A DNA stretch of 55,329 nucleotides from Nitrososphaerota archaeon (GCA_029786595.1 JAFLXO010000005.1:4652-59980); one strand, 5' to 3'; shown: positions 38,797 to 55,329, numbered from the stretch's first letter. The notes: generated by a model not told the origin, from the sequence alone. Numbers and translations are program-made.

Positions 38797-38904
38797 GACG
38801 CAAGATCAAGTTTCAATCCTGCCAGGGCTCGATCGAAATCTGGCATTACGCCCATGTGTAACAGCGGTTTCTCTCCTACGATATCAGGCAACAGCATCCA
38901 TCCT

Positions 38905-39690: not shown

Positions 39691-40023
39691 TGCCAGCGAT
39701 CAACAGATTCCAAATAGGATTGGTTGGCATCTATCACTGCCCACCAGGGCCGGGCCGGTTACGGGCGTGAGCCTGAATCCCATAAGATGGGGATAAGATT
39801 ATACAGATATAAGCTTATACATGTTCGGGTCCTGCTGACTTTTGGGAATGAGCCCATCGAAAGCCTGGGGATTAAGGAATATATATCAAGCCATGGCGCT
39901 TTTAAACTAAGATATGCCATAACTGACGACCCTCTTCGGAACGAGAAATAGCCAGTGGCAGCCCGTCATCATCTTTTTAAGCCCGTTTTGCCCAAGAAAA
40001 GGTGTATGCCTTTTGGTGTCAGA

Positions 40024-40596
40024 ATGAGGAGGAAGGGCGTTAGCCGAATCACGACTGCATTTGCGGTGGCGATAATAATCATAATCATCGCTGTAGCCGG
40101 ATTTATTATATTTAGTGCTGGTGGGCTTGGCAACATTGGAATCGGAACTGGTGGAAACGGCGGCGGAGCCAATTCAAACGTGCCAGCGCAAATAGTTATT
40201 ACTTCAACTAATCCCACACTGGAACAAAGCATTGCGCCTGCTGGAGTCGATCTTCTTTATTATAAGCCGCTTGTATTACAACCGAACACGAATTATACGT
40301 TCCCAATAACGATTACTGTAGAAAACAGCGCAGGCGAAGTATTGAACACGTCCATTGTAATTACACCAGTGAATTGTACCTTCATTTATCCAAAAGATAA
40401 TATTTTATACTACGTATCTCCGTCTTCGGGCGTTTCTCCGTTTAATGCAACTTTGGTAATTGTTACGGGAAGCACAGTAAATTTTGGGCAAACAACTGAT
40501 GGTGATATTAGCTTGAGCTTTACACTATCCACTGCTATGGTAAAGAATCCAAATATATATAATATTCTTATTGCAAATTCAAGTTACAAATCATGA
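40024..40596 (+). CDS. Archaeal type IV pilin-like protein
   Basis: Class III signal peptide-like MRRKG/VSRI followed by a hydrophobic helix and a T/N-rich beta domain. Confidence 0.75.
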   Translation: MRRKGVSRITTAFAVAIIIIIIAVAGFIIFSAGGLGNIGIGTGGNGGGANSNVPAQIVITSTNPTLEQSIAPAGVDLLYYKPLVLQPNTNYTFPITITVENSAGEVLNTSIVITPVNCTFIYPKDNILYYVSPSSGVSPFNATLVIVTGSTVNFGQTTDGDISLSFTLSTAMVKNPNIYNILIANSSYKS

Positions 40597-40617
40597 TCAT
40601 AGTAATTAAATTACTCG

Positions 40618-42687
40618 TTAAGTATTAGGGCTTGTAGCACCCATATACCCACCGTTTGTATTAAAAACCGCATTAGCATAAGATATACCTGTATTGCCGA
40701 TTGGATTGTTCACAGTATATGAATAATACCCATTACTAGCGGTTACAGTGTAGCCGGTCGCTAAATGCCCGCCGCCGCCATTATCGAAATATACAGTTAT
40801 TGTTTGCCCGCCCAGCCCTGCGCCATTATCGGATGTAGTTAGATATCCGTAAATCGTGTATGTACCAACGCCGGTGGTGAAGCCGGCACTCAATCCAGTT
40901 GGCGTGTAGTATGCCGCCGTAACGCTGGCCGTACCACCGGAACCAACTGATACAGAAGAAGGCGCACTGTATACACTCAAACCGTATTGTGAGTTACTAT
41001 AGGAAATCGAATATGTGCCCGGCGGCACCCAAGCTACGGCATCACTCCCACCACTATATACTAACTGTTTCCCGTTAGAAAGCGTAGCGGTAGAAATTGC
41101 GGTCGCCCCAGTGCCATAATCCTGCGATGAGTAGAATATTTCACCATCTTCACCAAAGTTCGCGCCGATCGAAGTTGGTGAGTATATGTTGAACTGGTAT
41201 GGATTGCCGCCCGAAACACCAGTCCACGATGAAAAATACCAATTTGTAGATGGGTACGCCGTCACCGTCACCAGCGTGCTCTCATTATACCAGCCACCGC
41301 CAGATACAGAACCAGAGCCAGAGTTCACATACGCATTCACGTAAAGCTGTGTGGTGTATGAAGCCGTGATGGTGGTGGAACCGTAGATGGTTTGCGAACC
41401 GCTCGAAGGATTCGGATTCACATACTGCACTCCGGAGCCGCCGCTGAAAGAGCTCCCGAAAGTATAGGTTATCGTGCTTCCGTAGTTGACCGTAACGCTG
41501 TAAGGCGTGGTTCCAGAACCGTAGTTCGTGGATACAGGTGCACCGCTGACCGGATTTGACTGGAACGTGACTGAATAGGAGTTAATGCCAAAGTTCGCGT
41601 ATATAGAGTTGGGCCCGTTCATGGTGACAGAATAGGTTGAACCAGTATTGCCGTTAGACCAATCGATGAAGTGCCATCCGCCTGCTGGAGATTCTGAGGC
41701 TGTTGCAGTGGAGCCAGCGTTGTACCAGCCGGAGCCGGATACGGAGCCTGAGCCGCTGGCTATGCCCACGGTAAAGTAGTACTGGAGCTGGTATGCTGCG
41801 GTTATGGATCCGCTGCCGGTTACTGTGAACGAGCCTGATTGCGAAGATGATAATCCGGTTGTGCTTTCCCATACATATTGCGCTCCTGAGCCGCCGGAGA
41901 CAGGGGATATCCATGAGAATGAGTGGGTTGTACCCTCCTGCCAGGTGAAGCTGATTGGCAATTGTGAATATGTGTACGGGTTGCCATCCACTGTTAGCAC
42001 TGTGCCGCTTGCGCTTGAACTCATTCCTGTTTGTGCGAATGTTACTGTTGCGTATATTGGGTTGAATGTGGCGGCTTCTGTTATGTTAGACCACATGTAC
42101 ACGGAGAACGTCTGATCCGAACCGCTGTAGCTGTACTGCCCCGTCCCTGTCCAGCCGCCCCACGAATAATACTGCGCCGGGGCGGCGGTCAGCGTGACCT
42201 TATCGCCGTAGGTGTAATAATATGTGCCTGGCGCTGGGGTGGTGGACCCGCCAGGGGTAGAAGTGATGGTGAGAGCGTATATATCAACGGTCGGGTTGTT
42301 TATGTCGAAGGGGACGTACCATTCGTTTCCGTAGGACGTCAAAATCGCATACCGGTACGGCGTCTGCAACGTAAAGTTGTAGCTGGAGCCCGGGTACAGC
42401 GTTATGGATTCGTTGATAAACGTGGGCGGGCTGCCGGTGTTCGGGTTCCATACCATTATCTGCGTTATCCTGGCCGTGTACTGCCCGCCGTTCGTGACCT
42501 CAAGGGTGGAGCCGCTGATGGCCATGGACAGGTACTCGGCGTCCTTGTAATGTAACAGGTTCGTAACTTGCTGCTCCTGATACAGGCTGCTGAAGATGCC
42601 CACGGCGAAGAACGAAATGGCCAGCACACACGCTACGGCGATCAACAGCACAAGCAGGCCGGCGAGCATGGAGGAGACAGCCTTCAT
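40618..42687 (-). CDS. Large pilin-like adhesin with repeated InlB-B/Flg_new-like beta modules
   Basis: MKA/VSS class III-like signal; repeated GSGSVSG.GWYN....T.TA.P...W.F..W modules; S/G/T/Y-rich. Confidence 0.85.
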   Translation of the reverse strand: MKAVSSMLAGLLVLLIAVACVLAISFFAVGIFSSLYQEQQVTNLLHYKDAEYLSMAISGSTLEVTNGGQYTARITQIMVWNPNTGSPPTFINESITLYPGSSYNFTLQTPYRYAILTSYGNEWYVPFDINNPTVDIYALTITSTPGGSTTPAPGTYYYTYGDKVTLTAAPAQYYSWGGWTGTGQYSYSGSDQTFSVYMWSNITEAATFNPIYATVTFAQTGMSSSASGTVLTVDGNPYTYSQLPISFTWQEGTTHSFSWISPVSGGSGAQYVWESTTGLSSSQSGSFTVTGSGSITAAYQLQYYFTVGIASGSGSVSGSGWYNAGSTATASESPAGGWHFIDWSNGNTGSTYSVTMNGPNSIYANFGINSYSVTFQSNPVSGAPVSTNYGSGTTPYSVTVNYGSTITYTFGSSFSGGSGVQYVNPNPSSGSQTIYGSTTITASYTTQLYVNAYVNSGSGSVSGGGWYNESTLVTVTAYPSTNWYFSSWTGVSGGNPYQFNIYSPTSIGANFGEDGEIFYSSQDYGTGATAISTATLSNGKQLVYSGGSDAVAWVPPGTYSISYSNSQYGLSVYSAPSSVSVGSGGTASVTAAYYTPTGLSAGFTTGVGTYTIYGYLTTSDNGAGLGGQTITVYFDNGGGGHLATGYTVTASNGYYSYTVNNPIGNTGISYANAVFNTNGGYMGATSPNT

Positions 42688-42716
42688 AACACAGCATGCT
42701 GGGATGGCTTAAAAGG
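42685..42716 (-). promoter_or_regulatory. Shared element promoter, copy 1 (adhesin)
   Basis: Minus strand CCTTTTAAGC-CATCCCA-GCATG-CTGTGTT-ATG. Confidence 0.75.
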
Positions 42717-42735
42717 CGCGGATGGTGATCGGAAA

Positions 42736-43018
42736 GATGTTTTACATAACCGCTCAACGCCGCTCCTCAGCAGGCAAAGGGTTGGGCTGTGCCCACACCG
42801 CCGGCCATTATTTTTTTACAAACCATGCACAGGGTGGACAGGACCGGGCGGAGCCCTCGTCAAGAAGGAATACATGGACTATCATCTAAAGCAACACTAG
42901 GGCCAGCCTGCGTTTTCCTACCGGATACCTACTTCACATATGGGTTTGAACTTCATGCCCAATATCCTTAAGTGCAATTATTAAAATAACGCCATGTTAA
43001 TTTTATTAAGCGAGCGTC
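42736..43018 (+). repeat. Internally deleted copy of the replicase locus
   Basis: 42736-42847 matches about 48299-48410; 42848-43018 matches 51162-51333 including GALVKKEYM..HLKQH*. Confidence 0.9.
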
Positions 43019-43387
43019 GTAGAATAAAGCCCACAGCCCTTTTTTGCCAACATCATTTAATAAATTTTAGAGGCTTGCCAAGATAAAATTGTTACTTTTA
43101 ATAAGCTGCATTGGTCATTTCAAATGCTTATAATGCTTATTTTTAGCGTTAAAACATCGAACTTTTGAATAATTAAACAAAACACGCTTTATTTCAAATA
43201 ACGTTATTTGAATTCGAGTTCACATAAGTTGATTGACGAACTGCAACTACGCAGATGATGGACATTAAAAACATCCTTTTATAAAAGGATCCTTAACAGG
43301 CAAAGCACGCCCACCGTTAACCTCCGTTTGTTTAAAACCGATATCGCTAATAACGTTTTTAAGCACCCTTAATTTAATTAGCTAGCT

Positions 43388-43951
43388 ATGAGTTATGAAC
43401 CGTACGTGCTTTATTACGGGAGCAATTTTTTTAACAGGGCGAAAAAGGTTTATTCAATAGGCATGCTGGACAAGCCGTTTGGAAAGATCCTTAAAAAATA
43501 CGGAGAAAACTCAACGTTTTTGAATAGAGAGCAGGCTTCTCAGCTGCTCGATTCGTTTTCAAGACAAAGCTCGATAACTGTTTCTAACGCGCAGATCATG
43601 AAAAATCTGTTGGAGGTTCTTTTCCTTCCTACTTCTCTATTGTACAGTTATTTTAAGAAGCTTTCTTTTGCGGAAGCACACGAATTAGATGATCTTATTG
43701 TAATGGAGTTCATGGGGTCCCAGACAAAGCCTTTCAAGCTTACTCCGCTTTTAATTTACATGTGGTTCTTAATCCCAAAATCCGAAGAGGGATACACGCA
43801 TTCTATCAATTTGATGAAGAGAATAAAGGACGATGTAGGGGTCCCCCCAATCGATAAGGAGGAATGGGACGATCTAAAACCATTGATCGAAAAATTCTCC
43901 AGAGCGCTGCCTGTTCGCGGGTCAGCGGAAAACCTGTGGGAAAAGCTTTAA
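43388..43951 (+). CDS. Hypothetical cytoplasmic protein
   Basis: 187-aa ORF with TTTTTAAG about 25 bp upstream; no recognised motif. Confidence 0.75.
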   Translation: MSYEPYVLYYGSNFFNRAKKVYSIGMLDKPFGKILKKYGENSTFLNREQASQLLDSFSRQSSITVSNAQIMKNLLEVLFLPTSLLYSYFKKLSFAEAHELDDLIVMEFMGSQTKPFKLTPLLIYMWFLIPKSEEGYTHSINLMKRIKDDVGVPPIDKEEWDDLKPLIEKFSRALPVRGSAENLWEKL

Positions 43952-44579
43952 GATCGATTCCTTGTTTTAAATCGTTAAACGTATAAGGCCGCTTATCGTA
44001 CGGCCTGTTTAATCTGAAAGCATAGCAGGATTTTGTCCTCCAGCCTTGAGCTGACCATGGATCTTAAATTACCTTGGATTACCCTTCTTTTTCGTTTTTT
44101 AAAACGCCCGATCAAAGGCGCATTAAGGGTACAGTCAGCGTACTTGGCGGCGTAGCCTACCAATGCAAGCATTTTGACGTCCTCCCCTTGTAAGCCTTGG
44201 CGGCCATGTACCTTCCGTAAAGCCATATCATTAAAAAAAGCAGGAAGGGCTCTAGGAACGGCATAAAAAACAGTATTATATCTAAAATTGTACCCGCTAT
44301 GCCAGGGGATATGGCCTGCAGCTAATGGAATTTAATTTCTTTATCTTTCTGCCCCTCATTTTTGAACGATGTTATGCCCGTAAGCCGGATTAGGATGTAT
44401 ACGAAATACACATTATGTTGCCTTTCCATACATGTTAATTTTATTTTATTTATTAATAATGAACATCACTGCGGCGCAGGATAACTAGCTAAAAGATCAG
44501 AACGGTATCTAAAAAATTACCTGTTTCATTAAGCTTTTTGAAAGCGTCTGCGTATAAGACCGTTTGAAATTTCTTAAAT

Positions 44580-45320
44580 TCAAACGGTAACTTTCTGCTG
44601 CAGATTGGAGGTCTGCCCGTCGAGATAAATCGCATAGTAGCTAACATATACGCTCTGGCCAGAACTAAGTGACGTGACGTTTGACAGTGTCCCAGTGTAG
44701 CTCTGCCCAGGTTTAAGGTCTGTCAAATCTATCTGATAGGTTTGTCCGCCAGAGATCAAATGCGCCTGCGCGTACATTATTTCATCAGTGCCATTGTTAT
44801 AAAAGGTAACAGCCCAGGTTGCCAAAGAGCTGCCGGATGTCAAGCTTATTTTATCGCTTTTAACAAGAAATGAATCATTAACGGGACCCAGCTCAGTCAG
44901 GGTTATAGATTTATTGAAGCTTTGATAGGCACCGTTTGTAAAGTATATTTTTATATTGGACGTATACTGTTGACCGTAGTAAACAGTTATAGAAGGTCCA
45001 GTTGTATACGCTGCTATCATACCAGCGCTGACCGGGCCAACATATATCATTGTTTGAAGAAGGGCTGTGCCGTTATAGAGTTCCGAAGTAATGTTTTCAA
45101 TGCTAATTGTACCTGTATTTTTTACAGTTATTGTCTGTGCAGCATTAGACGTAGTAGCCGCTAAAGTATCGTTTAAAATTTCTGCCGAATATGAAACCGC
45201 TGGTTGGCCGTTTGAGCCTTTATTATTCAAGCTTCCTGATCTGTATGTATTTTCAACGAATGCTGCCGCTATTAAAACCAGCACAACCACTATTATAATA
45301 GTTAATGTCTTAACTTTCAT
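44580..45320 (-). CDS. Membrane-anchored surface protein with two pilin/Ig-like domains
   Basis: N-terminal TM helix; duplicated TVKNTGT / TFYNNGT modules; many sequons. Confidence 0.8.
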   Translation of the reverse strand: MKVKTLTIIIVVVLVLIAAAFVENTYRSGSLNNKGSNGQPAVSYSAEILNDTLAATTSNAAQTITVKNTGTISIENITSELYNGTALLQTMIYVGPVSAGMIAAYTTGPSITVYYGQQYTSNIKIYFTNGAYQSFNKSITLTELGPVNDSFLVKSDKISLTSGSSLATWAVTFYNNGTDEIMYAQAHLISGGQTYQIDLTDLKPGQSYTGTLSNVTSLSSGQSVYVSYYAIYLDGQTSNLQQKVTV

Positions 45321-45517
45321 ACGACCAATTTTATTTTGGGATATTTAAAAATTTTTTGCCCCTTTGGGCCTTGGAAAACGGTTGCAGATTATCAGCCCAG
45401 CGCGGGCCTGGGTTAGAACGGCGCAGATCAGCCCCATCCAATATACGCATATCCGGGGCACAGCGTTCAAAGGACACGGTCTATCGATCGATCAAGCAAA
45501 CAAATGATGTACGGAAA

Positions 45518-45637
45518 TTTACCGCTAAATTGAAGGTGTAAAAATCAGAGGAGGGGGTTATGTAAAACATTATCAGGATGTTTTACATGACCCGCTGAAC
45601 GCCGCTCCTCAGCAGGCAAAGGGTTAGGCGGTGCCCA
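45518..45637 (+). repeat. 120-bp direct repeat (left copy) containing a 16-7-16 palindrome
   Basis: Four mismatches versus 48240-48359 by manual alignment; GGGTTATGTAAAACAT-TATCAGG-ATGTTTTACATGACCC at 45555-45593. Confidence 0.95.
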
Positions 45638-46243
45638 GAGGATGCTCCAAAAAACGCTTAGGTAGGTAAAAACGTTTGCAAATCGTTGAGCTGCGCCAAA
45701 TATCAAGAGTTTCAATGCTATCAATGGTTTTCCATTTTCCATTGCTCTAACTTTTTTGCCCTATTTAACCCCCTACTCCTATTTCCCTTTGCCTCGGGGA
45801 GCAAGATGTAATTTTAATGAAAGGATGAGGTAATTATACGGAGCTTGAATGGGGATGGAAAGTCAGAAGAAGGGAGTATGGAAAAGCGTTGATATCCTTG
45901 ATACCTTGATGTTTGGGCTGCGCCCGCCTTCTGGCACAGTACCATATACCGTGTATTCTTCTTATTATTGATCGTCCTATTGATATTATGCGCCGAGTAT
46001 GCCCTATATTTTTCAGGGCGGCGGTGCGCGAGCTTGGGACATATGCCCTGTAGCTATCACGCCGCTGGTGATAGAAGACCTTTACCGTCAGACCTGAAAT
46101 ATGTCTGAGGCCTTCAATAGTGAAGGTGTGTACGGGCCTTAGGTAATGGCTGCTCCAGAACATGCGTTAAATTTTTTTACAAACCTCAAACCAACTCGCC
46201 AGTTAATGAAGCATTTATATAAGAATGGATATATATAGGAATT

Positions 46244-46963
46244 ATGTGCTTAGGTAACGGTCAAGAAGCACTTCATCAGAATGTATCTGACGGGGAATTT
46301 TTTAATAAAATTGATGTAACAAAGGGGGAACTTGAAAGGAAGTTGGAAAAGTACAAGGCAGAGGAGGTTTATGCTTACATAGTACAATCTGTTGAATATG
46401 ACGGGTCAAAATTTTTACAGGCTGCCACAGGGCCGAACTTTGAAGGAGGGATAATAACTCTGTGTACATGTAAGCATAGGATGCGAGCCAGCAGTAGAAA
46501 GGTGAAAGAAGGATGGAAGTCAACCTGGATAGCGGGCTTTACGGGCCAACGCTTATTCAGGGATGGGCGGAATTATCTGTTCTATCTGATGCGCGTGGGG
46601 GAAGCGTTTCCGTCACAGAAAGCCCTTTGGGACAGCCTGGATACACATACACGGGAAGTGAAGAACGCTCTACATAACCCACTGGGCGACCTGTATCAAC
46701 CCAAGCCGTCCCCTGAATTTAAGAGTGAATATGAATGGGGCAGTTACTATGAACCCTGCAAGGACCATGATCACCGTAAGGATGGTATATGGAAAGGCGA
46801 TATAGATTATAAAGGTTTACACCCTTCCCTATTGCTCGGGGAAAAGGATAACAGCTACCTGTGGTTTGATAAGAGTAGGGCCCCAAGCTACAAAGGCGAC
46901 GGAAAGCAGTTCCGGCAGAAGAAATTCAATAGCTTGGAGGCATTCCTCAGGGAGCTCAGATAA
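46244..46963 (+). CDS. Nmad2-like protein (nucleotide modification associated domain 2)
   Basis: YAYIV...GPNFEGG.ITLCTCKH.MR...WIAGF...LFYLMRV...N..GD.Y...H..D pattern; TTTATATA upstream. Confidence 0.75.
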   Translation: MCLGNGQEALHQNVSDGEFFNKIDVTKGELERKLEKYKAEEVYAYIVQSVEYDGSKFLQAATGPNFEGGIITLCTCKHRMRASSRKVKEGWKSTWIAGFTGQRLFRDGRNYLFYLMRVGEAFPSQKALWDSLDTHTREVKNALHNPLGDLYQPKPSPEFKSEYEWGSYYEPCKDHDHRKDGIWKGDIDYKGLHPSLLLGEKDNSYLWFDKSRAPSYKGDGKQFRQKKFNSLEAFLRELR

Positions 46964-46977
46964 TCTGTGTCACGGAC

Positions 46978-47643
46978 ATGTCATGCATACTGATCAATGT
47001 CGGGTCCGGAGGGTCTAATCCGAACGGCAGGGGGAGAATATTTGATGACGGAACCTATGAATACCTGCCACTTCCGGAGCAGGAAAGGACCAGTGAGAAA
47101 ATTCCCACTTACAGGGACATCGGGTTCGAAAAGGTAAAATTCCCTGATATTGCAGTTCACCTTGACCCTGAATTCGAGACCTATACATATGGTCATGTCA
47201 TAAGGGGGTTCGGGGACGTAAGGCTCTTCGTGGGTCTCAAAGCCGGCGGCATGCTCGTCTTTTACTCGACCCTTCAGAATGGCCACCATTGGGCACCATA
47301 CATAATAGGGTACTTCTTCGTTGACCGGGCCATAGATTGCAGGAATTTTCAGGCCTCGGATATCTTCGCTCTCAGATCCGAGGGCTTTCAGAATAACGCC
47401 CATCTGAAGAGGATTGACCCTCAGGTTGATTTTCTGGTCAAAGGCGATGATAACTCCAGATTGCTGAAGAAGGCCTTTCGGATGACAGAAACAACGGAGC
47501 CGCTCGCCCTGCGAAAATCATTGAGAAACCTTCTATTCACGCCTAGCGGGCGGGCAATTGGCGACAGAAAACCATGGTACAGGTGGACGCTGATCTGTAA
47601 AAACCCTTCAGAACTCCTACAGGTCATTGCAGAAGACAGTTAA
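46978..47643 (+). CDS. Nmad3-like protein (nucleotide modification associated domain 3)
   Basis: INVG, GRIF.DGTYEYLPLPE, PTY.D, VHLDPEF...TYG, LVFYSTL, IIGYF.V and NNAH.KR motifs. Confidence 0.82.
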   Translation: MSCILINVGSGGSNPNGRGRIFDDGTYEYLPLPEQERTSEKIPTYRDIGFEKVKFPDIAVHLDPEFETYTYGHVIRGFGDVRLFVGLKAGGMLVFYSTLQNGHHWAPYIIGYFFVDRAIDCRNFQASDIFALRSEGFQNNAHLKRIDPQVDFLVKGDDNSRLLKKAFRMTETTEPLALRKSLRNLLFTPSGRAIGDRKPWYRWTLICKNPSELLQVIAEDS

Positions 47644-48239
47644 TATTAGCTTTCCGATTTCATTAACGCATCATTGATGTTTACATCCATGATCGAACAT
47701 AAAGGTTCTAGGTACTTCTGGACATCCAAGGGCGAAGATTGAACATTACCAGTACTCCGAACTAGAATGACCATCTAATCATGCCATAGAAATCGATTCT
47801 TTATTATATAGGGAATGCAGCCATATTGAACCTCATCCACATAAATACAATAATAATAAATCTGGAATATTTGAAAGACAGAAAGCCCTATTTCTTAAGT
47901 TTATAAACTGAGTTGGTTACGAATTAGACTTTGCTTTTGAGAATACCCAGAGGGCACCGTGGGCAGTGCTGCCGACGTAGCTGCTAATTTTTATTTTCTG
48001 CGTTTGGGGGAGCTATAATAAGCTTCATATATATATTGAGCGAGGAACTCAAGCTACTTGGAGTCAGGAAATTTCCTATGACTTCAAAAAGCATATGTAA
48101 TAAAATAGACACATATAAATCATTACTTTACCTTTTTGCAGTTGAATCAAAATTTGGGTCTTTGTTATCTGTGATGATCGCCATGTTCGATGCATAGGAA
48201 GGCAATATCGGAGGAGAGTAATATGGTTTTATGGTGAGG

Positions 48240-48410
48240 TTTACCGCTAAATTGAAGGTGTAAAAATCAGAGGATAGGGTTATGTAAAACATTATCAGGA
48301 TGTTTTACATGACTCGCTCAACGCCGCTCCTCAGCAGGCAAAGGGTTAGGCGGTGCCCACACCGCCAGACATTATTTTTTTGAAAACCATGGACAGGGCG
48401 GACAAGACGG
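48240..48410 (+). repeat. 120-bp direct repeat (right copy, 48240-48359) plus an extension shared with 42736-42847
   Basis: Manual alignment with the 45518 and 42736 copies; palindrome at 48277-48315. Confidence 0.95.
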
Positions 48411-48494
48411 CGCCCAGTATTAATGCTATCAATGTCCTTCCAAATATTTTTCTAAAAACCCCTGACATGGTTGGTTTTCTGGGTAGGGATCAAG

Positions 48495-48701
48495 CGTGTC
48501 AACCCTGTCAACCCTGTCATGGGGTTGGTATACTGTTACCCCCTAACCTTTACTCACCCTATATAAGCTCCCTTTTTTTCTCTTGGTTTGTGTTTAAAAA
48601 CCGCTGTTTTTACATGTGGAATAAGGGGTTTAAATAGGGCAGTGGAAATTTAAGGGGCTACAATATGGCACCCCCCTGACAGCCCTGACAGGGGTGACAC
48701 G
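48495..48701. other. Putative replication origin: inverted triplets of 9-bp-spaced TGTCA iterons flanking an AT-rich core
   Basis: CGTGTCAACCCTGTCAACCCTGTCATGGGG (48495-48524) is an imperfect inverted repeat of CCCCCTGACAGCCCTGACAGGGGTGACACG (48672-48701); immediately upstream of the replicase. Confidence 0.7.
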
Positions 48702-48733
48702 GTCATCCGAACCCCAAGGGCGACCCTGTCATG

Positions 48734-48766
48734 CCTTTTAAGCAAATTTTTGCATGCGTGCGCATG
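48734..48766 (+). promoter_or_regulatory. Shared element promoter, copy 2 (replicase)
   Basis: CCTTTTAAGC-AAATTTTT-GCATG-CGTGCGC-ATG; implies a true start at 48764. Confidence 0.75.
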
Positions 48767-51214
48767 TCGGCCAAGATCGATTTTGACATGGGCCTCAACG
48801 TCATCCCGCTCGAACAGGGGAAAAAGACCCCCGCCGTGGATTGGAAGAATTTTCAAACGCGCCATCTCTCTCAGGAGGAGTTTAATGAGTGGTTCGGGCA
48901 GGACCCGAACCGTAACCATGCGGTGATAGGCGGCGTCACATCCCACAACCTCGTGGTGCTCGATTTTGAGGCGTGGAATGATTTTGTGGCCTTCTTCCCG
49001 GAGTGGGAGAGGCTGGCGAAGACCACCCGCGTCGTGAAGACGCCCCATGGCGGCGCCCATGTATATTATTATACACAGGAGGAGGTCCAGCGCAGGATCA
49101 AGGTGTTTGGCGACAAACATCAGGTTGACGTGTGCGGGTGGGGCGGCTATGTATGCGGGATCGGCACGGTCATCGACCATGCGCTGTGCGACAAAAAGAA
49201 GTGCCACATAGATTCCGGCAAGAGCACGTACGAAGCCGTCGGGACCATGGACATTTCGGTAGTCGGAAAGGGGCTCCTCGCATCTTTCCTTGATCGAGGC
49301 CGGAGGCTGGGCTGGCAGGTTGAGGTGCTGAAGGACACCAGGCCCGAGAGGGACACCTTTGATCACCTGCTCACCGTGGATGGCCGGCTGAACGGCCTCT
49401 TCAACGGCGACATTGAAGGATATGCGTCCCGCTCTGAGGCTGAATTTGCGCTCGTCATAAGGCTGATCAGCTACGGCTTCAGCGATGAGCAGATCAACCG
49501 AATAATGAAAGATTCAAGGATAGGCAAGTGGAACGAGTCCGAACAGTATGCCGAATACACGCTGCGGAAGGCGCACGAATGGATCGTGCGCGATCGCTCC
49601 GTGACTGCGGACGAATCGCCGTCCCTCCTAGGCCTCGGCAACCCCTCGGACGCGGCCGACCACGTCCTCGAGCGCTTTCATATCATCACCACGGACGACG
49701 GCCTGTACGTATACGACGAAGGGCTGGGGATGTACAGGCAGGGGATGGAGAAGGCGATCCAGGCGTGGGCCGAGCAGCAGGCCCGTGTTTCAGGCGGCAA
49801 TATATCACTTCGTTACATTGCTGAAATGTTTGGCCACATACAGCGCAGGACCTATGAGCGCGATATAGCGGACAACACGGATGTGTTCCACCTGAAAAAC
49901 GGCATACTGAACATGAAGACCGGTGAATTTATCGACCACACGCCCGATAAGGCGTATTTCTCCGCAATCCAGCTTCCGGTGAAGTACGACCCGAAGGCGA
50001 AGTGCCCGCTGATATTGAAGTTCATTTCTGAAATCGTCTACCCCGAAGACATCGCCGTCATTCAGGAGTTCACAGGCTACATGTTCTACCGTGGATATCC
50101 GGTGGCAGCTGCGCTGCTGCTCGTGGGCGGCGGCAGCAACGGCAAGTCCACACTGATCAGCCTGATCAAGGCCCTTCTGGGGCCATCGAACATCGCCACG
50201 TGCAGCCTTCAGGAGCTGGAGTACAACCACTTCGCCAAGGCCGACCTCGTGGGCAAGCTTGCTAACCTCTTTGCTGACCTGTCCGACGTGGCGCTGAAGT
50301 CCACGGGGGTGTTCAAGATGCTCACCGGCGGCGACCCGATCACCGCTGAGCGAAAGTACGGCCAGCGGTCCCCGTTCGTGAACTATGCAAAGCTCGTTTT
50401 CAGCGCGAACAAGGTTCCGATGGCATACGACGACAGCGATGCGTTCTTCCGGCGTTTCATCATCGTCAAGTTCCCGATGACGTTCAACAAAAGGACCGCC
50501 GACGCCCGGCTGCTTGAGAAGCTCACGACCGAGGAGGAGCTGTCCGGCCTCCTGAACTGGGGGCTTGAAGGCCTGCGGCGCCTCATGGACAACGGGTTCG
50601 TGTTCTCGAATTCCAAGAGCGTAGAGGAGATAAAGGACGAATACATCAGGATGTCAAACCCTGTGGAGGCGTTTTTCATGGACATGGTGGAGGAGGACCC
50701 GGAGAAGCGCATCGCCAAGGCTGACCTCTATCAGGCGTATGTAAGCTACTGCAAGGCGAGGAAGCTGGCGCCCGTAACTATGCCCACCTTCTTCCTGAAC
50801 GTGAAGAAGAACGGCCGCAACTACAGCGAGACGAGGTTAACATCCGAAGAGAACGGAAGGAAGGTGCGGTACAGCGCCTTTCTGGGGATCGCGCTGAAGT
50901 CCAGCGGTTCAGGTGAGCGGCCTTTAGATGCTACTCCCGTAGTACAACCGGCAAAGGATACGGAACCCGAAGCGGCTAAACCGGAGGCTAGGTCAGAGGC
51001 TAGGTCAGAGGCCAAGCCAGAGGCCAAGTTGGAGGCCAAGCCGGCAGACGAGAGGGCCGCGGAGGCGCCCGATACAGCGCCAGCGAAAACTGATAGCGCC
51101 CCGGGCTTTGATGTGGTCAACGACGTTGCCGCAGGCGTGCAGATATACCGGTGCAGGGAGTGCGGGGCCCTTGTCAAGAAGGAATACATGTCCGACCACC
51201 TGAAGCAGCACTAG
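48764..51214 (+). CDS. Plasmid/virus replicase: AEP primase-polymerase, helical domain, D5/P4-family SF3 helicase and C-terminal C2H2 finger
   Basis: VVLDFE, KTPHGGAHVYY, GGYV (prim-pol); SRSEAEFAL; LKNGILN; GSNGKST Walker A; KLVFSANK, AFFRRF; CRECG...HLKQH. Confidence 0.93.
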   Translation: MSAKIDFDMGLNVIPLEQGKKTPAVDWKNFQTRHLSQEEFNEWFGQDPNRNHAVIGGVTSHNLVVLDFEAWNDFVAFFPEWERLAKTTRVVKTPHGGAHVYYYTQEEVQRRIKVFGDKHQVDVCGWGGYVCGIGTVIDHALCDKKKCHIDSGKSTYEAVGTMDISVVGKGLLASFLDRGRRLGWQVEVLKDTRPERDTFDHLLTVDGRLNGLFNGDIEGYASRSEAEFALVIRLISYGFSDEQINRIMKDSRIGKWNESEQYAEYTLRKAHEWIVRDRSVTADESPSLLGLGNPSDAADHVLERFHIITTDDGLYVYDEGLGMYRQGMEKAIQAWAEQQARVSGGNISLRYIAEMFGHIQRRTYERDIADNTDVFHLKNGILNMKTGEFIDHTPDKAYFSAIQLPVKYDPKAKCPLILKFISEIVYPEDIAVIQEFTGYMFYRGYPVAAALLLVGGGSNGKSTLISLIKALLGPSNIATCSLQELEYNHFAKADLVGKLANLFADLSDVALKSTGVFKMLTGGDPITAERKYGQRSPFVNYAKLVFSANKVPMAYDDSDAFFRRFIIVKFPMTFNKRTADARLLEKLTTEEELSGLLNWGLEGLRRLMDNGFVFSNSKSVEEIKDEYIRMSNPVEAFFMDMVEEDPEKRIAKADLYQAYVSYCKARKLAPVTMPTFFLNVKKNGRNYSETRLTSEENGRKVRYSAFLGIALKSSGSGERPLDATPVVQPAKDTEPEAAKPEARSEARSEAKPEAKLEAKPADERAAEAPDTAPAKTDSAPGFDVVNDVAAGVQIYRCRECGALVKKEYMSDHLKQH
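50981..51040 (+). repeat. Five imperfect 12-bp tandem repeats encoding a (P/S/L)EA(R/K) linker
   Basis: ccggaggctagg tcagaggctagg tcagaggccaag ccagaggccaag ttggaggccaag. Confidence 0.85.
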
Positions 51215-51395
51215 GGACGGCCTGGATTTTCCCACTGGATATATACTTCACATAAGGGTTTGAACTCCATGCCCAATATCCTTATGTGCAATTATTGGCA
51301 TAATGTCATGTTAACTTGATTGAGCGAAGCGTCCAATTTGTCTTGAAATGGATTTCAGGTAAAAATATATAAATTTAATTATGTATTAGGCATCA

Positions 51396-52763
51396 ATGAA
51401 TCTGAAAATAGTAGCCGCTGTATTGATAGTTCTAACAGTAATAGGCTTCTCTGCATTCGCGTATGACCAGTTCTATGTCATACCTTCTCAACAGACGCAG
51501 TTGAACAACGCTGAGGCCAGTATATCTGCCATGGCACAGAGCCTGAGTTCCATGACCGCTGAATTCCAGTCTATAAATTCAAGCCTTTTGAACCTCAGCA
51601 ATGGCCTTTCTGGCGAGCAGTCCGTTATAACCCTACTCAATTCAAGCATAACTTCAGAGAATTCTCAGCTGATAAGCCTGGAGCAGAATCTGATGGAAAC
51701 ACCAAGGATAGGTATAGTCAACCCAGTTTCATTTGAGCAGGCGCCAATCCTGGCAGCGATGAGCGTCCAGGCTTCTGTTAAAATAGATGGATACACGTTC
51801 TGGCTTGGCACTATAGGAAATCACCAGGTAGTAGAGGTAAGGAGCGGAGAGAAGGAATTTGCTTCAGAGCTGGCTACGGTCCTCATGGATACGCATTTCA
51901 ACATTGTCGCAAACATAATGTCCGGAATAGCAGGCTCAAGGAATCCAAATCTCAAAACTGGCGACGTGCTGATAGGCGCGTTCGTGGTAAACCCTGACGC
52001 CATTAAATACTCCTATGACGGAACGCAGATACCCTATACCACCGAAATGGTTACAACGCCAAACTCACTGATAAACGGCACAATAATAACTGGCTACGGA
52101 CAGACCGGCGCTACCCCAAGCGATGCCTCCACATACGGTTATGGCCCGGGAGATAATAATTCGTCATTTCCCTATATCGCAGACTTTGTGGCATCTGCAG
52201 GCCTAGTGCAGATCGCAGAAGGGGCCTCTGGAATACTGGGCTCCACCAGCAATTCATACATAACCGGTAATCCCAATGCAACCGGCACGTCGCCTGCCAA
52301 TGAAATGATCGGCGTTATAAGTTCGTCATCTCACTGGACCAATCCGGTGTCCATCAACGGTGTGCAGAATGCGCTTTACCAGACCGATGCTGGGGAAAAT
52401 GAGGGATTTGGGTTCGCATATGCCAATACGCAACTGGGCATTCCATGGGTCGTGGTCAGGGGCATATCCAACTCTCACTTTGTGCTTAACGTCTTCAAAG
52501 GCACGCTGGCTGCGGACAGGGCTGCGAATGTGACAGTTTACATCATAGATCACTTTAATATGAACGGCATGCTGTATCAGCCTGCAACATTTTCGATGCT
52601 ATCGGGCAATTCCAACGCAGCGATGCACGGGTACATAGTCGCTGATTCAGCAACCTATAATATGACCAATATAACAGTAACTCAGGTGCAGTACACCGCT
52701 CAGAACGGGTCGATCATAACCATAACGAACCCCAATATGTTAGAATATACAGGTCCCAACTGA
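51396..52763 (+). CDS. Membrane-anchored extracellular MTA/SAH nucleosidase-like (PNP_UDP_1) protein on a coiled-coil stalk
   Basis: N-terminal TM, heptad S/L/N stalk, RIGIV...EQ, SGIAGS.NP.L..GDV.I, ENEG.GFA, IPWVVVRGISN. Confidence 0.85.
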   Translation: MNLKIVAAVLIVLTVIGFSAFAYDQFYVIPSQQTQLNNAEASISAMAQSLSSMTAEFQSINSSLLNLSNGLSGEQSVITLLNSSITSENSQLISLEQNLMETPRIGIVNPVSFEQAPILAAMSVQASVKIDGYTFWLGTIGNHQVVEVRSGEKEFASELATVLMDTHFNIVANIMSGIAGSRNPNLKTGDVLIGAFVVNPDAIKYSYDGTQIPYTTEMVTTPNSLINGTIITGYGQTGATPSDASTYGYGPGDNNSSFPYIADFVASAGLVQIAEGASGILGSTSNSYITGNPNATGTSPANEMIGVISSSSHWTNPVSINGVQNALYQTDAGENEGFGFAYANTQLGIPWVVVRGISNSHFVLNVFKGTLAADRAANVTVYIIDHFNMNGMLYQPATFSMLSGNSNAAMHGYIVADSATYNMTNITVTQVQYTAQNGSIITITNPNMLEYTGPN

Positions 52764-52779
52764 GAAGGCATACCGGCCC

Positions 52780-52803
52780 CTTCTTTCTTTTTTTATTTTT
52801 TTT
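52780..52803 (+). terminator. Oligo-T archaeal terminator
   Basis: Long T-rich tract directly after the stop of 51396-52763. Confidence 0.6.
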
Positions 52804-52970
52804 ATATATATGTATATAACCTCTTACCGTTTTTACATCAGGCTCCAATGCCTTTTGTTGCGTAATCCCCTCAGCCACTCAGCTGTATCAAGGGCTCTGT
52901 ATAATCCCCCAACAGCCGTGCAAACATCTTCCTGATCCTCCTATCTGAGCAGGGTTCCATTGCGGTGTGC

Positions 52971-53002
52971 CCTTTTAAACCTCCTTCGCATGTGCCATCA
53001 TG
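52971..53002 (+). promoter_or_regulatory. Shared element promoter, copy 3 (SSB-like gene)
   Basis: CCTTTTAAAC-CTCCTTC-GCATG-TGCCATC-ATG. Confidence 0.75.
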
Positions 53003-53326
53003 GTCAACATAGAAGACGTATACGGCCAGTCCGAATACCTGAAGGCGCAGGACCTGCCGCCAAAGCCTGTAAAGTATGTGATTGAGGACGTTTATGTGCG
53101 AACCTTCTATCAGCAGGGAGTTTCGACCACAAAGGTGGTCCTGAAACTGAGGGGGGAGAAGAGGAGTTTTATCGTCAATAGGACCAACGCAGGCATCCTT
53201 TCGGGCATGTTCGGCAGGGAAACCGACGGCTGGAAGGGGAAGGAGATAACGGTTGCGAAGCAGCTCATCAGGGCCTCGGACGGCGCAGAGGTGTTCTCGG
53301 TGGTGGTGCAGCGTGCGGCGCAGTAA
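53000..53326 (+). CDS. Phage-type putative ssDNA-binding (OB-fold-like) protein
   Basis: S.YLKA.DL, K.VL...G.K...VN.TNA..L..MFG.ETDGWKGK.I pattern common in phage replication modules; function inferred. Confidence 0.7.
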   Translation: MVNIEDVYGQSEYLKAQDLPPKPVKYVIEDVYVRTFYQQGVSTTKVVLKLRGEKRSFIVNRTNAGILSGMFGRETDGWKGKEITVAKQLIRASDGAEVFSVVVQRAAQ

Positions 53327-53465
53327 AGCGGCGCTGAAAAAACTGTTCCACAGGAGGAAAAGGAGGCCGGCCGCATTGATTTTTCCAAGCGTGGGATAAA
53401 ACCATGAGGCTCGGCGGCTGGCGGCGGGTATTATACATGATAAGGTGTTTACCGATTAAAGATAT

Positions 53466-53540
53466 ATCGTACTATTATAGTACTTGATAGTACGATTGCC
53501 CATGTCCATAGTACTACCTAGTACTATATCGAACTATATC
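53466..53540. repeat. Helically phased (TA)GTAC(TA) array with a 10-bp inverted repeat
   Basis: GTAC at 53469, 53480, 53490, 53511, 53521 and GAAC at 53531; ATCGTACTAT/ATAGTACGAT inverted pair. Confidence 0.7.
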
Positions 53541-53676
53541 CATAAAAATCGACACCGCTCAGGTGGTTGCGCGGCGATAAAAAAGCTGATTAGCAATTAT
53601 GGTTGAATAAATTCGATAGCCTACGGCCACAAGCAGTGTGATGGGAGAGTGCCTCTCTGGCCCCGCGCTTGCCTTG

Positions 53677-53708
53677 CCTTTTAAACGGTGCTGGCATGCC
53701 TTCTCATG
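53677..53708 (+). promoter_or_regulatory. Shared element promoter, copy 4 (T2SS-F gene)
   Basis: CCTTTTAAAC-GGTGCTG-GCATG-CCTTCTC-ATG. Confidence 0.75.
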
Positions 53709-55329
53709 AAGCTTCCCTTTTACGGTTGGCGGCTGTACTTTTTATCGGTGGTTCCCTTATTCGCCATAGTCTTTATCGGGCTGTCGCTCATGCGATTTGG
53801 GCGCACGGGGTACGTGGGGCTTGCCTCAGCTACAATGATCGGCACCGGGATCGGCCTGCTGATCGGCGGGTTCGTATACTATCTTGATGAAATGAAGCGG
53901 GGAAGCATCGCCCTGCCACCTCGCCCGAAAATCAAACGCGTCAGGCCGACCAGGCGCAACAAACACCTCGACCGTCTGGCCGGCCGGCTTGCAAGGGGGT
54001 CGTCAGGCGAAATAATCAAAGCCGGGGTGGGCTATACGCCCAACGCATTCTATTACAGGTACATCACCTACGGCGCCTGGTCCTTCATGGCCGCAATCCC
54101 TCTGTCCTTTGCCCTGGCATTCCTCCTGAAGACCCCCCTTCCGCTGGCCCTGCTGGCGGTCCCCCTCTTCGTCGTGTTCATGGCGCCGGGCATTACGCTA
54201 AAGTCCACCGCCGGCGACCGGAGGAGGGCGATAGACGACGAGCTCCCCTTTTTCGCGCTGTACATGTCAACCATGGCCGACGCCGGGGTGTCCCTGTACG
54301 ATGCCCTTAGGCGGCTGATAGGGCGCGGCGTCTTCAAGTATATAGAACGTGACGCTATCTACCTCCGGCAGTCCGTCGAGTTCCTCGGGCAGGATCAGCT
54401 TTCAGCGATAGACATGCTTGCGAAGGAGCACCCGTCCAAGTCGATGAGGGACCTGCTCTACGGCTATTCCTCGGAGCTCAGGTCGGGCGGGGACATCGCT
54501 GGGTACTTCACCGGCAGGGCCGAGTCCCTTCTCAGGTGGCTCGAATTCCGCTTCTCGAAGTACGGCGACTCAGTTTCCGACCTGGGCGAGATGATGACCG
54601 CCATGTTCTTCATAATGCCCACCCTGGTGATCGCTTCGGCGTTCATCTCCCCGGCCGCTTCGATAACCCTCGTGTGGGTGATGACGGTGCTTGTGATCCC
54701 GGTCATGGGGGTGGTGATCATATTCCTGATCCGTTCGGCCCAGCCGAAGACGGGCGATGCATACGTGGGGAACGTCCGCAACGGCGTCATAGCAGGGGCC
54801 GTTTCCGGGTCCATAATGGCCTTCCTGCATGTCCCGCTCTGGGCTCCAGTGGCGGCCGGGCTGGTGGCGGGCTCCCTGGCCTTCAGCCTGCCGGTGTACA
54901 TGCAGAAGAGGGCCGCCGACGCCGAAGAAAGGAGCCTTGAGGGGTTCGTGCGTGATGTAACCGAATATCGCAAGTCGGGGTATGGCATGGCCCGGACGAT
55001 AGGGAAGCTGGCCGCCGAGGGCAGGTATACGAAGGAGTTCACTGCGGTGCTGAAGGGCGTGGCCGTCTCCCTCTCGCTCGGCTCCCGCCTTTCGGAGGTC
55101 GTTGTGAAAGGGGCCTCCTGGGCCACCCGCGAGCTGTTCTTCCTCCTTGGCGAGGTGGACGATTCCGGCGGGGGATCGCCAAGGGAGCTTGAACTGGTAC
55201 ATGAGTTCATGGAACAGTTCACGAACGCCAAGGCGATGGTCAAGTCCCGCATGAAGATCTACGAGCTGCTGACCATGGCAACCCCTCCGAGGCTCGGCAT
55301 TCTGATCTTTGTCAGATCCACCTTCATGA
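53706..55329 (+). CDS. Type IV pilus/Tad assembly platform protein (T2SS-F, TadB/TadC/ArlJ-like), 3' truncated by the window; absent from the ORF track
   Basis: Manual translation MKLPFYGWRL..., frame still open at the window end; IDDELPFFALYMSTMADAGVSLYDAL, HPSKSMRDLLYGYSSELRSGGD and a second T2SS-F-like repeat FVRDVTEYRKSG. Confidence 0.88.
   Translation, partial: MKLPFYGWRLYFLSVVPLFAIVFIGLSLMRFGRTGYVGLASATMIGTGIGLLIGGFVYYLDEMKRGSIALPPRPKIKRVRPTRRNKHLDRLAGRLARGSSGEIIKAGVGYTPNAFYYRYITYGAWSFMAAIPLSFALAFLLKTPLPLALLAVPLFVVFMAPGITLKSTAGDRRRAIDDELPFFALYMSTMADAGVSLYDALRRLIGRGVFKYIERDAIYLRQSVEFLGQDQLSAIDMLAKEHPSKSMRDLLYGYSSELRSGGDIAGYFTGRAESLLRWLEFRFSKYGDSVSDLGEMMTAMFFIMPTLVIASAFISPAASITLVWVMTVLVIPVMGVVIIFLIRSAQPKTGDAYVGNVRNGVIAGAVSGSIMAFLHVPLWAPVAAGLVAGSLAFSLPVYMQKRAADAEERSLEGFVRDVTEYRKSGYGMARTIGKLAAEGRYTKEFTAVLKGVAVSLSLGSRLSEVVVKGASWATRELFFLLGEVDDSGGGSPRELELVHEFMEQFTNAKAMVKSRMKIYELLTMATPPRLGILIFVRSTFM

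Follow-up and report, generated by a model that had tools for sequence, protein, structure and literature searches.

The integrative conjugative elements (ICEs) of Thaumarchaeota share, in the account of Krupovic et al. (2019, PMC6563490), a kit of VirB4, VirD4, TadC, FlaI and pilins, and all described members encode homologues of TFIIB, in most cases immediately ahead of a ParB-like gene. Abby et al. (2018, PMC5797428) wrote that such homologues 'could alter the promoter specificity', and Makarova et al. (PMC4858521) found that, among the regulators predicted in archaeal type IV pilus loci, TFIIB homologues are the most common. Although these homologues have been noted on thaumarchaeal ICEs and in archaeal pilus loci since 2016-2019, no cognate promoter is named in the passages of these three papers that treat them (PMC4858521, PMC5797428, PMC6563490). 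The word 'promoter' occurs 0 times in the main text of PMC6563490 and once, as speculation, in PMC5797428, and neither text reports a promoter motif. Nor was a promoter motif for archaeal conjugative elements found in the open-access literature that we searched, supplements aside. The present work concerns a stretch of 55,329 nucleotides from a Nitrososphaerota archaeon (GCA_029786595.1, JAFLXO010000005.1:4652-59980), hereafter called the window, in which four genes of a putative ICE are preceded by the spaced motif CCTTTTAARC-N7/8-GCATG-N7-ATG. This motif very probably represents an ICE-specific core promoter class.

In bacteria, the kor regulon of IncP-1 plasmids and phage sigma-factor promoters are cases in which genes for replication, transfer and maintenance are coordinated by a single cis signal specific to the element, and we know of no archaeal counterpart that has been demonstrated. 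Both differ from the motif described here in their bacterial machinery and longer palindromic operators. Among archaeal mobile elements, the closest parallel in print is the early-gene consensus of rudiviruses. In SIRV2 a highly similar promoter-containing sequence precedes many unrelated early genes, and suspicion falls on a dedicated regulator (Bhoobalan-Chitty et al. 2024, PMC11065993). However, the consensus given there, for SIRV2 as for other viruses of archaea, is a strong canonical promoter with a B recognition element (BRE) that is rich in purines, plus TTTAWATA (PMC11065993), whereas the ICE promoter has no A-rich BRE, carries CC/RC flanks around the TATA box and adds a box at -12 to -8. 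Nearest in biology are the ups and ced genes of Sulfolobus, where a short cis motif is common to genes for pili and for DNA transfer, with participation of a truncated TFB paralogue (Le et al. 2017, PMC5817253). Unlike the ICE motif, the Sulfolobus hexanucleotide lies upstream of the core promoter (-46 to -39), is chromosomal and precedes 214 host genes (PMC5817253). For the archaeal core promoter, BRE, TATA box and promoter proximal element (PPE) have been described in Thermococcus (PMC5316973), and TFB and bacterial sigma factors have been argued to be homologues (PMC4581349).

The assembly searched (G000) comprises 1,609,299 bases in 110 contigs. The window corresponds to bases 4652-59980 of contig C66 and ends at the contig end. 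An earlier, sequence-only reading of the window had pointed to an adhesin, a replicase, a single-stranded DNA-binding (SSB)-like gene and a type II secretion system F (T2SS-F) gene that share a TATA variant and a GCATG 7 nt before the start codon, and all four sites read exactly as described there. The pattern CCTTTTAARC-N7-GCATG-N7-ATG (N8 at the replicase) has these four matches in the window and none besides, and 0 of 100 dinucleotide-preserving shuffles of the window contained any match. The genome-wide scan that the same reading had proposed returned five exact matches in the whole assembly, and all 5/5 precede element genes. Four are the window sites, and the fifth, on contig C87, precedes the gene of a 991-aa T2SS-E/FlaI-type (VirB11-type) pilus ATPase. 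If the final ATG is not demanded, a sixth match appears on contig C62 before a DUF932 gene, at 10 nt rather than 7 from the ATG. Since CCTTTTAARC alone occurs 29 times and GCATG-N7-ATG alone 49 times across the assembly, the rarity belongs to the combination.

A consensus was derived from the element-bearing contigs and loci of five genomes. The collection rule demanded CTTTTAA and, 21-25 nt downstream, the ATG of an open reading frame (ORF) of at least 50 aa; no rows were dropped, and 41 unique promoter sequences resulted. They follow the consensus KK-CC-TTTTAA-RC, N7/8, RYATR (mostly GCATG), about 7 nt, a pyrimidine and ATG. CC stands ahead of the TATA box in 39/41, RYATR is found 7 or 8 nt after TTTTAANN in 29/41, and at least one RYATR promoter is present in 14 of 20 protein families, all of one ICE family. 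Because the promoter copies are related by descent and not independent, counts are given per protein family and genome and not as P values. Positions were tallied in the 29 sequences with the commonest spacing, at sites that had not been selected for. Around the TATA box, 28/29 have C at -29, as many have R at -21, and 23/29 have C at -20. Within the box the counts are 19/29 for G at -12, 27/29 for Y at -11, 29/29 for A at -10, 26/29 for T at -9 and 24/29 for R at -8, and a pyrimidine at -1 followed by the A of the ATG at +1 is present in 29/29. TTTTAA sits at -27 to -22 (or -28 to -23) relative to the ATG. Both spacers and the region upstream of the CC have little information content; this upstream region is A-poor, with A in at most 7/29 at every position from -35 to -30 and CC at -29/-28.

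The distance between TATA box and RYATR box is constant (7 or 8 nt after TTTTAANN), whereas the distance from box to ATG varies between 7, 8 (pilins), 10 (DUF932) and 11 nt. Hence, the box is a TATA-anchored promoter element and not a translation signal. The earlier claim of a GCATG exactly 7 nt before the start is thus correct for the four window sites but does not hold as a rule, since the box is a degenerate RYATR tied to the TATA box. The ATG within the box was also considered as an alternative start codon or as the transcription start and was discarded: it lies 10 nt from the start codon in another frame and is, at ~12-17 bp from the TATA box, too close to it.

The degeneracy is seen within single gene families. 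Adhesin promoters in sister copies of the element keep the TATA part and have GCATG, GTATG or GCATA as box, and a truncated 54-aa adhesin copy on contig C20 has lost the box. Replicase promoters in the assembly carry GCATG or ACATG. In replicase orthologues with 88% and 70% protein identity, CCTTTTAA and the spacing are conserved and the box reads ACATG or ATATG; in the Nitrososphaeria metagenome-assembled genome (MAG) with the 70%-identical replicase, the ATATG box is accompanied by an intact CCTTTTAAAC and intact spacing, and the spacer sequences are different. SSB-like promoters have GCATG, GTATG, GCATA, GTATA or ACATG, and RYATR is present in all 6 unique promoters collected for this family, one of them from another host family (G018).

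Host promoters provide the contrast. A profile was built from 135 of 876 ATG-start ORFs, crudely called, that have a TATA-like hexamer at -32 to -21; a simple count of TATA-to-ATG offsets had given only a weak signal and was superseded by such ORF-anchored profiles. Host promoters are A-rich at -35 to -33 and show TTTWWAAA at -30 to -23 and a weak A/T signal at -10/-9 (47% A at -10), and 74% have a pyrimidine at -1; this default layout indicates a leaderless architecture. TATA-like hexamers of the host start at -32 to -26, and the element TATA lies at the proximal edge of this range. With its TATA position and the pyrimidine at -1 of the ATG, the element geometry fits the presumed leaderless layout of the host. 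TATA position, A/T preference near -10 and a pyrimidine-purine initiator are features that the element has in common with promoters of its host. The differences are that the A at -10 is invariant in the element (29/29), where the host signal is weak, that it is extended to RYATR and that the BRE is replaced.

For counting, a host set of 793 ATG ORFs was used, from which contigs with element copies or pilin clusters had been excluded. RYATR at -12 to -8 occurs in 7/793 (0.9%), which is chance level, and CATG at -11 to -8 in 0/793. The string CCTTTTAA is found at -29/-30 in 2/793, two paralogues, neither of which has the box. At least two A at -35 to -33 are present in 74/117 TATA-bearing host promoters of this set, and the AT dinucleotide at the host -10 signal in 13.7% of TATA-bearing promoters. 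The motif is therefore specific to the element, as the sequence-only reading had supposed, and ordinary host genes carry its box no more often than chance allows. Avoidance of CATG as a sign of restriction pressure was dropped, since its observed/expected frequency in the genome (0.89) is unremarkable.

The distribution across genomes was determined with a relaxed pattern (CCTTTTAAR, N, N7/8, RYATR, N7, ATG) and the same pattern reversed as control. Within the host's order, five of 36 genomes from two families contain 23 matches (11, 3, 3, 4 and 2); the pattern is absent from the other 31, and the control gave 0 matches in all 36. The 365 genomes of the class outside the order (in a sample of 401) had 6 single matches against 30 for the control, which is noise level. 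In the other four motif genomes, genes for SSB-like proteins, replicase, ATPase, methylase and tyrosine integrase and for small membrane or pilin-like proteins stand behind the motif. The source names of homologues ('Conexivisphaerales archaeon', 'Nitrososphaeria archaeon') suggest a host similar to Conexivisphaerales. Overall, the marked gene set covers replication, pilus, ATPase, integrase, methylase, DUF932 and pilin genes. Since a common promoter precedes them, the backbone genes for replication, DNA binding, pilus and conjugation, integration, methylation and DUF932 would form one transcriptional class.

These genes resemble the thaumarchaeal ICE kit in several respects. Pilus components are the T2SS-F gene in the window, the T2SS-E gene on C87 and pilin-like genes on C1, C34 and C51, and a tyrosine integrase gene with the motif variant GCACG lies on C75. 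In a relative (G029), a VirB4/TraG-like ATPase and a TrwB/VirD4-type coupling protein are encoded on the same 131-kb contig as the motif-bearing ATPase and methylase genes, and a VirB4-like gene is also present in two further relatives (G018 and G003). The assembly studied here (reported completeness 82.7%, contamination 4.2%) contains a fragment of the type IV coupling protein on C3 and gave no VirB4-like match. VirB4/VirD4-type ATPases in relatives, TadC-like platform, FlaI-type ATPase, pilins, tyrosine integrase, primase-helicase, methylases and a candidate TFIIB-like gene directly upstream of a ParB-like gene are paralleled in the described thaumarchaeal elements (PMC6563490, PMC5797428). 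Judging from this gene content, the motif genes probably belong to a family of ICEs of thermoacidophilic Nitrososphaeria. Further copies of the element with 80-90% identity to window positions 39734-55329 are found on C20, C15, C27, C35 and C89, and host genes are duplicated as well (38000-39709 vs C40, 86% identity). Because both host genes and element come in several versions, the bin mixes related strains or species.

Sister copies also separate backbone from cargo. On C20 the adhesin and replicase genes lie next to each other in divergent orientation, separated by ~500 bp that contain no cargo. In the window the same two genes are ~5.5 kb apart, and the intervening block is bounded and divided by three ~100-bp direct repeat copies. 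The motif thus ties the now distant adhesin to the replicon, in line with the earlier proposal. The block encodes a 187-aa protein, a CARDB-like protein, Nmad2 and Nmad3. These genes, and a phosphorylase gene behind the replicase, have host-type A-rich BRE/TATA or other A/T-rich promoters without the box. This agrees with what had been read for the cargo promoters at 43388, 46244 and 51396 and applies equally to the one at 45320. Consequently, the motif separates backbone from cargo, and the acquired cargo genes appear to keep host-type promoters.

For the regulator, the sequence-only reading had suggested an element-encoded TFB, helix-turn-helix (HTH) or ribbon-helix-helix (RHH) protein. A PF00382 scan found no TFB gene on the element contigs and no extra canonical TFB in the four other motif genomes, but a TFIIB-core-like protein, here called p208, is encoded beside the integrase on another contig. 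The host itself has at least three full TFB genes (C44, C71 and C110, PF00382 scan) and TFB-like genes on C68 and C86. The C68 gene was rejected as reader of the motif; it is found in 35/36 genomes and is therefore a host gene. The C86 gene, present in 1/36 genomes on a virus-like contig with no motif copies nearby, was rejected as well. Its product (L044:3616-4554) is a divergent protein of 312 aa with a zinc ribbon and a weak TFIIB repeat, and DUF5131 and an Hjc-type resolvase are encoded on the same small contig. A zinc-ribbon protein beside the VirB4-like gene of G029 was discarded too, as its ribbon matches are sub-threshold and it has no homologue in G000.

On contig C75 the integrase gene is followed by the 208-aa gene of p208 and then by a gene of ~325 aa. 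The pair recurs in G029 and G018, and counterparts of the ~325-aa neighbour in more distant homologues (G003 and G022) give sub-threshold ParB_N matches. Strong p208 homologues are confined to motif genomes; weak ones occur in G003 and G022. In total, 7 clusters of p208-like genes came to light. The AlphaFold (AF2) model of p208, based on 11 sequences (predicted local distance difference test, pLDDT, 72), is all-helical, with the first ~20 residues predicted disordered. Its top Foldseek matches are TFIIB/TFB cores, including Pyrococcus TFB in TBP-DNA complexes (best E 7.7e-3, ~180-190 columns). Structural alignment with VIA gave Z 10.1 with the human TFIIB core (1c9b_A; root mean square deviation, rmsd, 6.2, 149 aligned), Z 9.2 with 5iy6_M (151 aligned) and Z 8.5 with Pyrococcus TFB (1ais_B; rmsd 6.5, 146 aligned), and the first repeat alone matched cyclin C with Z 10.8 (rmsd 3.4, 95 aligned). 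In an unbiased search of 48,161 representatives, all p208 rows down to Z 7.3 are cyclin-fold proteins by title, and the matches that span both halves are, judged by entry titles, TFIIB/TFB or Pol II/Pol III initiation complex entries. Fold and synteny moderately support p208 as a TFIIB-core-like protein with two cyclin-like repeats. It is not a complete TFB, because the zinc ribbon and the reader that recruit polymerase are missing. In lacking the ribbon and escaping the Pfam model, p208 also appears to differ from the TFIIB homologues of the thaumarchaeal ICEs. TFB3, the Sulfolobus paralogue, keeps the zinc ribbon and has no core, so that p208 shows the reverse arrangement.

With a probability of roughly 0.55 for the reading as a whole, we propose that the motif is a private core promoter of the ICE family, with p208 as the candidate reader of its TATA flanks. 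TBP would bind TTTTAA, and a G/T-rich, A-poor stretch ending in CC would take the place of the host A-rich BRE. The flanks on either side of a TATA box are DNA contacts of the TFIIB-family core, which is established for the BRE and holds for the downstream element as well. The upstream CC and downstream RC would be read at this level by the element-encoded, zinc-ribbon-less p208. This protein would license the promoters or, without the polymerase-recruiting part, silence them as a polymerase-blind decoy. RYATR at -12 to -8 would mark the place where the transcription bubble begins, at the upstream edge of the opening region, and, as the promoter opens or the start site is chosen, may be recognised by the reader of the host TFB together with the polymerase. 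The pyrimidine-A step one helical turn past the box would then serve as initiator and supply the first base of the ATG, yielding a leaderless mRNA. Leaderless starts, co-regulation and the assignment of proteins to motif parts are inferences. That p208 is the reader of the motif is a tentative assignment, and the detailed version, in which it docks with host TBP only on CC-TTTTAA-RC promoters and silences or licenses the backbone, with RYATR setting the leaderless start, is rather doubtful.

Several observations weigh against this proposal, most of them against p208. Its gene is not on the contig of the window, its own promoter has the ICE TATA without the box, and strong homologues are present in only 3/5 motif genomes (G030 and G032, which are 74% and 85% complete, are without one). 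p208 has no match to any Pfam family, including PF00382 at E up to 10, and is absent from the PF00382 genome scans. It has no sequence match in the PDB and no usable neighbour in the ESM Atlas, and hhalign against the host TFBs gave a probability of 2.7%. No Foldseek match reaches E 0.001. The rating as TFIIB-core-like is only moderate because Z values of helical proteins, below ~13 according to the caution of the tool, can reflect a common arrangement. Neither a zinc ribbon nor a B-reader/linker is present, and no Zn-ribbon family was matched at E up to 10 over the 208 residues. In G003, ICE-like regions have distant p208 homologues and no RYATR motif.

Others concern the motif itself. RYATR is missing from 12/41 element promoters, and the host counts are approximate, being based on longest-ORF starts and crude gene calls in a mixed-strain MAG. 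The RNA contigs that were found (Logan, word share 0.06) cover a cargo gene only, as two phosphorylase pieces within 48300-55329. As a conserved feature of the backbone, the T2SS-F promoter did not stand up: it lies in a ~290-bp stretch (53411-53704) that is missing from the sister copies on C27, C35 and C89, so that 0/3 have it, and there the T2SS-F gene sits ~90 bp after the SSB-like gene without a promoter of its own. The T2SS-F gene of G032 has an element-type TATA with a degenerate box.

The two ICE-like regions of G003 can also be read differently. Their TATA boxes, of the GTTATAAG or TTTTAAG type, are flanked by G/C, and a -10 box is lacking, which fits a co-variation of factor and promoter, as a single contrast in a host of 65% G+C. 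These divergent regions (G003:C1 ~1,036-1,056 kb and 602-622 kb, L065 and L068) lie in a complete genome that belongs to the host's order, and have a VirB4-like gene at 50% identity, a ParB-like gene and the distant p208 homologue.

The box could alternatively be a classical operator, bound by an element-encoded HTH or RHH repressor until induction. A repressor between TATA box and start would block polymerase recruitment, as many archaeal repressors do from this position, and global plasmid regulons work by the same principle, with the backbone kept silent until induction. Host promoters lack the box, it extends to the palindrome GCATGC at 3/4 window sites, one of them within a 10-bp palindrome, and HTH proteins are encoded near element genes in relatives (HTH_45 in G018, HTH_20 in G029). 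However, with only ~5 bases conserved between freely varying flanks the box is short for a dimeric regulator, many copies that look functional are non-palindromic (GCATA, GTATA, ACATG), and no conserved ~10-bp inverted repeat is present. No small DNA-binding protein common to all element copies was found, and a 94-aa ORF upstream of the replicase lies within a repeat and is apparently non-coding. The consensus regulatory sequence of SIRV2 early genes is thought to be repressed by a winged HTH protein (PMC11065993), a precedent for such an arrangement. We regard the operator as a possibility to be treated with reserve; it is compatible with the promoter part of our proposal.

Recruitment of a host regulon, in which a host TFB paralogue or stress regulator reads the motif, for example upon DNA damage as for the UV-inducible pilus and DNA-exchange genes of Sulfolobus, is improbable. 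The host does have several full TFB genes, and the ups pili promoters of Sulfolobus have a conserved hexanucleotide in a response that involves tfb3 (PMC5817253). Yet CATG is never found at the respective position in the host ORFs, the two host copies of the CC-TATA variant are boxless, no TFB paralogue tracks the five motif genomes, and 31 of the 36 genomes of the order have no copy. Even less probable is an epigenetic mark, with the CATG of the box as target of the element's small N6/N4 DNA methylase that tunes or protects the promoters. CATG is a 4-bp palindrome typical of methylase sites, and the methylase gene of the element family itself has the motif, but the degenerate boxes GTATG, GCATA, ATATG and GTATA do not contain CATG, and its genome frequency is ordinary. 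A leftover from duplication of one promoter segment, or mere chance, is scarcely credible and already disfavoured: promoter-bearing DNA can move, as the insert with the T2SS-F promoter illustrates, but the spacers differ among all copies while the motif positions are fixed, 14/20 unrelated protein families from five genomes and two host families share the motif, and neither the shuffles nor the control within the order gave a match.

Supplied here are a defined cis element, a marked gene set, a natural mutant series and a candidate trans factor. The series consists of sister copies with GTATG, GCATA and ATATG, the decayed boxless copy and the cargo promoters as internal controls. With 0 control matches in 36 genomes, the motif can be used as a specific probe to find and stitch element fragments in metagenome bins and to split backbone from cargo. 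If the detailed version with p208 is true, the conjugative elements of archaea possess a promoter code of their own, comparable to the control of phages by sigma or anti-sigma factors, and the motif and p208 would form a cis-trans pair, the first for the TFIIB homologues known for years from archaeal mobile elements.

The coordinates of all features are compiled in the table. The left end of the element was placed by similarity breaks alone, the right end runs off the contig, and there is no tRNA in the window. The gene labels of the sequence-only reading are supported by Pfam for adhesin, replicase and T2SS-F; that of the SSB-like protein has weak support from fold comparison.

Features of the element in the window (positions counted from the first base of the window)
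Feature	Position	Strand	Remarks
Element left end, approximate	39710..39734	.	C40 similarity stops at 39709; C20/C15 similarity starts at 39734/39943
Adhesin gene	40618..42687	-	689 aa; pilin-like N-terminus, InlB B-repeat (Flg_new_2) domains; PF18998, E 1.1e-15
Adhesin promoter and start codon	42685..42716	-	CC-TTTTAA-GC, N7, GCATG, N7, ATG at 42687
Direct repeat copies	42751-42849, 45593-45691, 48315-48413
Cargo block between adhesin and replicase promoters	42856..48314	.	insertion compared with sister contig C20; flanked and divided by direct repeats
Replicase promoter and start codon	48734..48766	+	N8 spacer, ATG 48764
Replicase gene	48764..51214	+	816 aa; primase-polymerase/D5-type helicase; Pfam Prim-Pol, D5_N, DUF5906
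Cargo phosphorylase-superfamily gene (PNP_UDP_1)	51396..52763	+	455 aa; host-type A/T-rich promoter
SSB-like gene promoter and start codon	52971..53002	+	exact motif
SSB-like gene	53000..53326	+	108 aa; OB-fold; weak OB-fold matches
T2SS-F gene promoter and start codon	53677..53708	+	exact motif
T2SS-F/TadC-like membrane platform gene	53706..55329	+	PF00482, E 2.9e-7; runs off contig end

The N-terminus of the adhesin is similar to the class III signal peptides of the pilin-like genes on C1, C34 and C51, where the Pilin_N match is weak. For the 108-aa protein no Pfam family was matched. Its AF2 model (pLDDT 67) shows a small barrel plus a helix, and the best Foldseek match is weak (PrgE, an oligonucleotide-binding (OB)-fold, SSB-like protein of plasmid pCF10, E 0.012), so the designation as SSB-like is no more than plausible. 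It was considered as a regulator and rejected, having only an OB-like fold and no match to a DNA-binding regulator family. Some of its distant relatives (30-45% identity) are encoded on contigs classed as viral. When metagenomes were scanned with the SSB-like alignment, 3 distant loci (~30% identity) emerged; two of them were inspected (L048 and L049) and have no TATA-like promoter upstream. Viral contigs contained 5 distant SSB-like loci (L070-L074), none with the motif, and 0 relatives of p208.

Positions 52761-52780, at the end of the cargo phosphorylase gene, are 85% complementary over 20 nt to 53687-53706, the part of the T2SS-F promoter from box to ATG. No element-type TATA adjoins this segment on the minus strand, and the complementarity may be due to chance. 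Two contigs from a mine-drainage metatranscriptome match the phosphorylase gene at 95-99%. Within the cargo block, the Nmad2/Nmad3 pair (nucleotide-modification-associated domains) occupies 46244-47643. Direct repeats of ~100-170 bp recur after the replicase (42848-43013 vs 51162-51327), and an inverted repeat of 19 nt with a 7-nt spacer lies ahead of two of the direct-repeat copies (45552-45596, with a copy at 48277-48319). Cargo cassettes may recombine or attach at these repeats, which could also represent a replication or regulatory region; Rfam gave no match in 39000-55329 at E up to 0.1.

The ATPase gene on C87 (L003:1073-4048, minus strand) is split by an intein with a LAGLIDADG endonuclease domain and encodes 991 aa, and its orthologue in G029 has 515 aa and no intein. 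Downstream of the T2SS-F gene, the sister copy on C27 (L007) carries Mrr, a set of PLD, helicase, MZB and methylase, PRTase-CE with ParB_N, and ABC transporter genes; the copy on C35 (L008) has a type IIG-like methylase/endonuclease, GmrSD and AAA_14/DUF4143 at this place. The cargo in this position is of the defence type and differs between the two copies.

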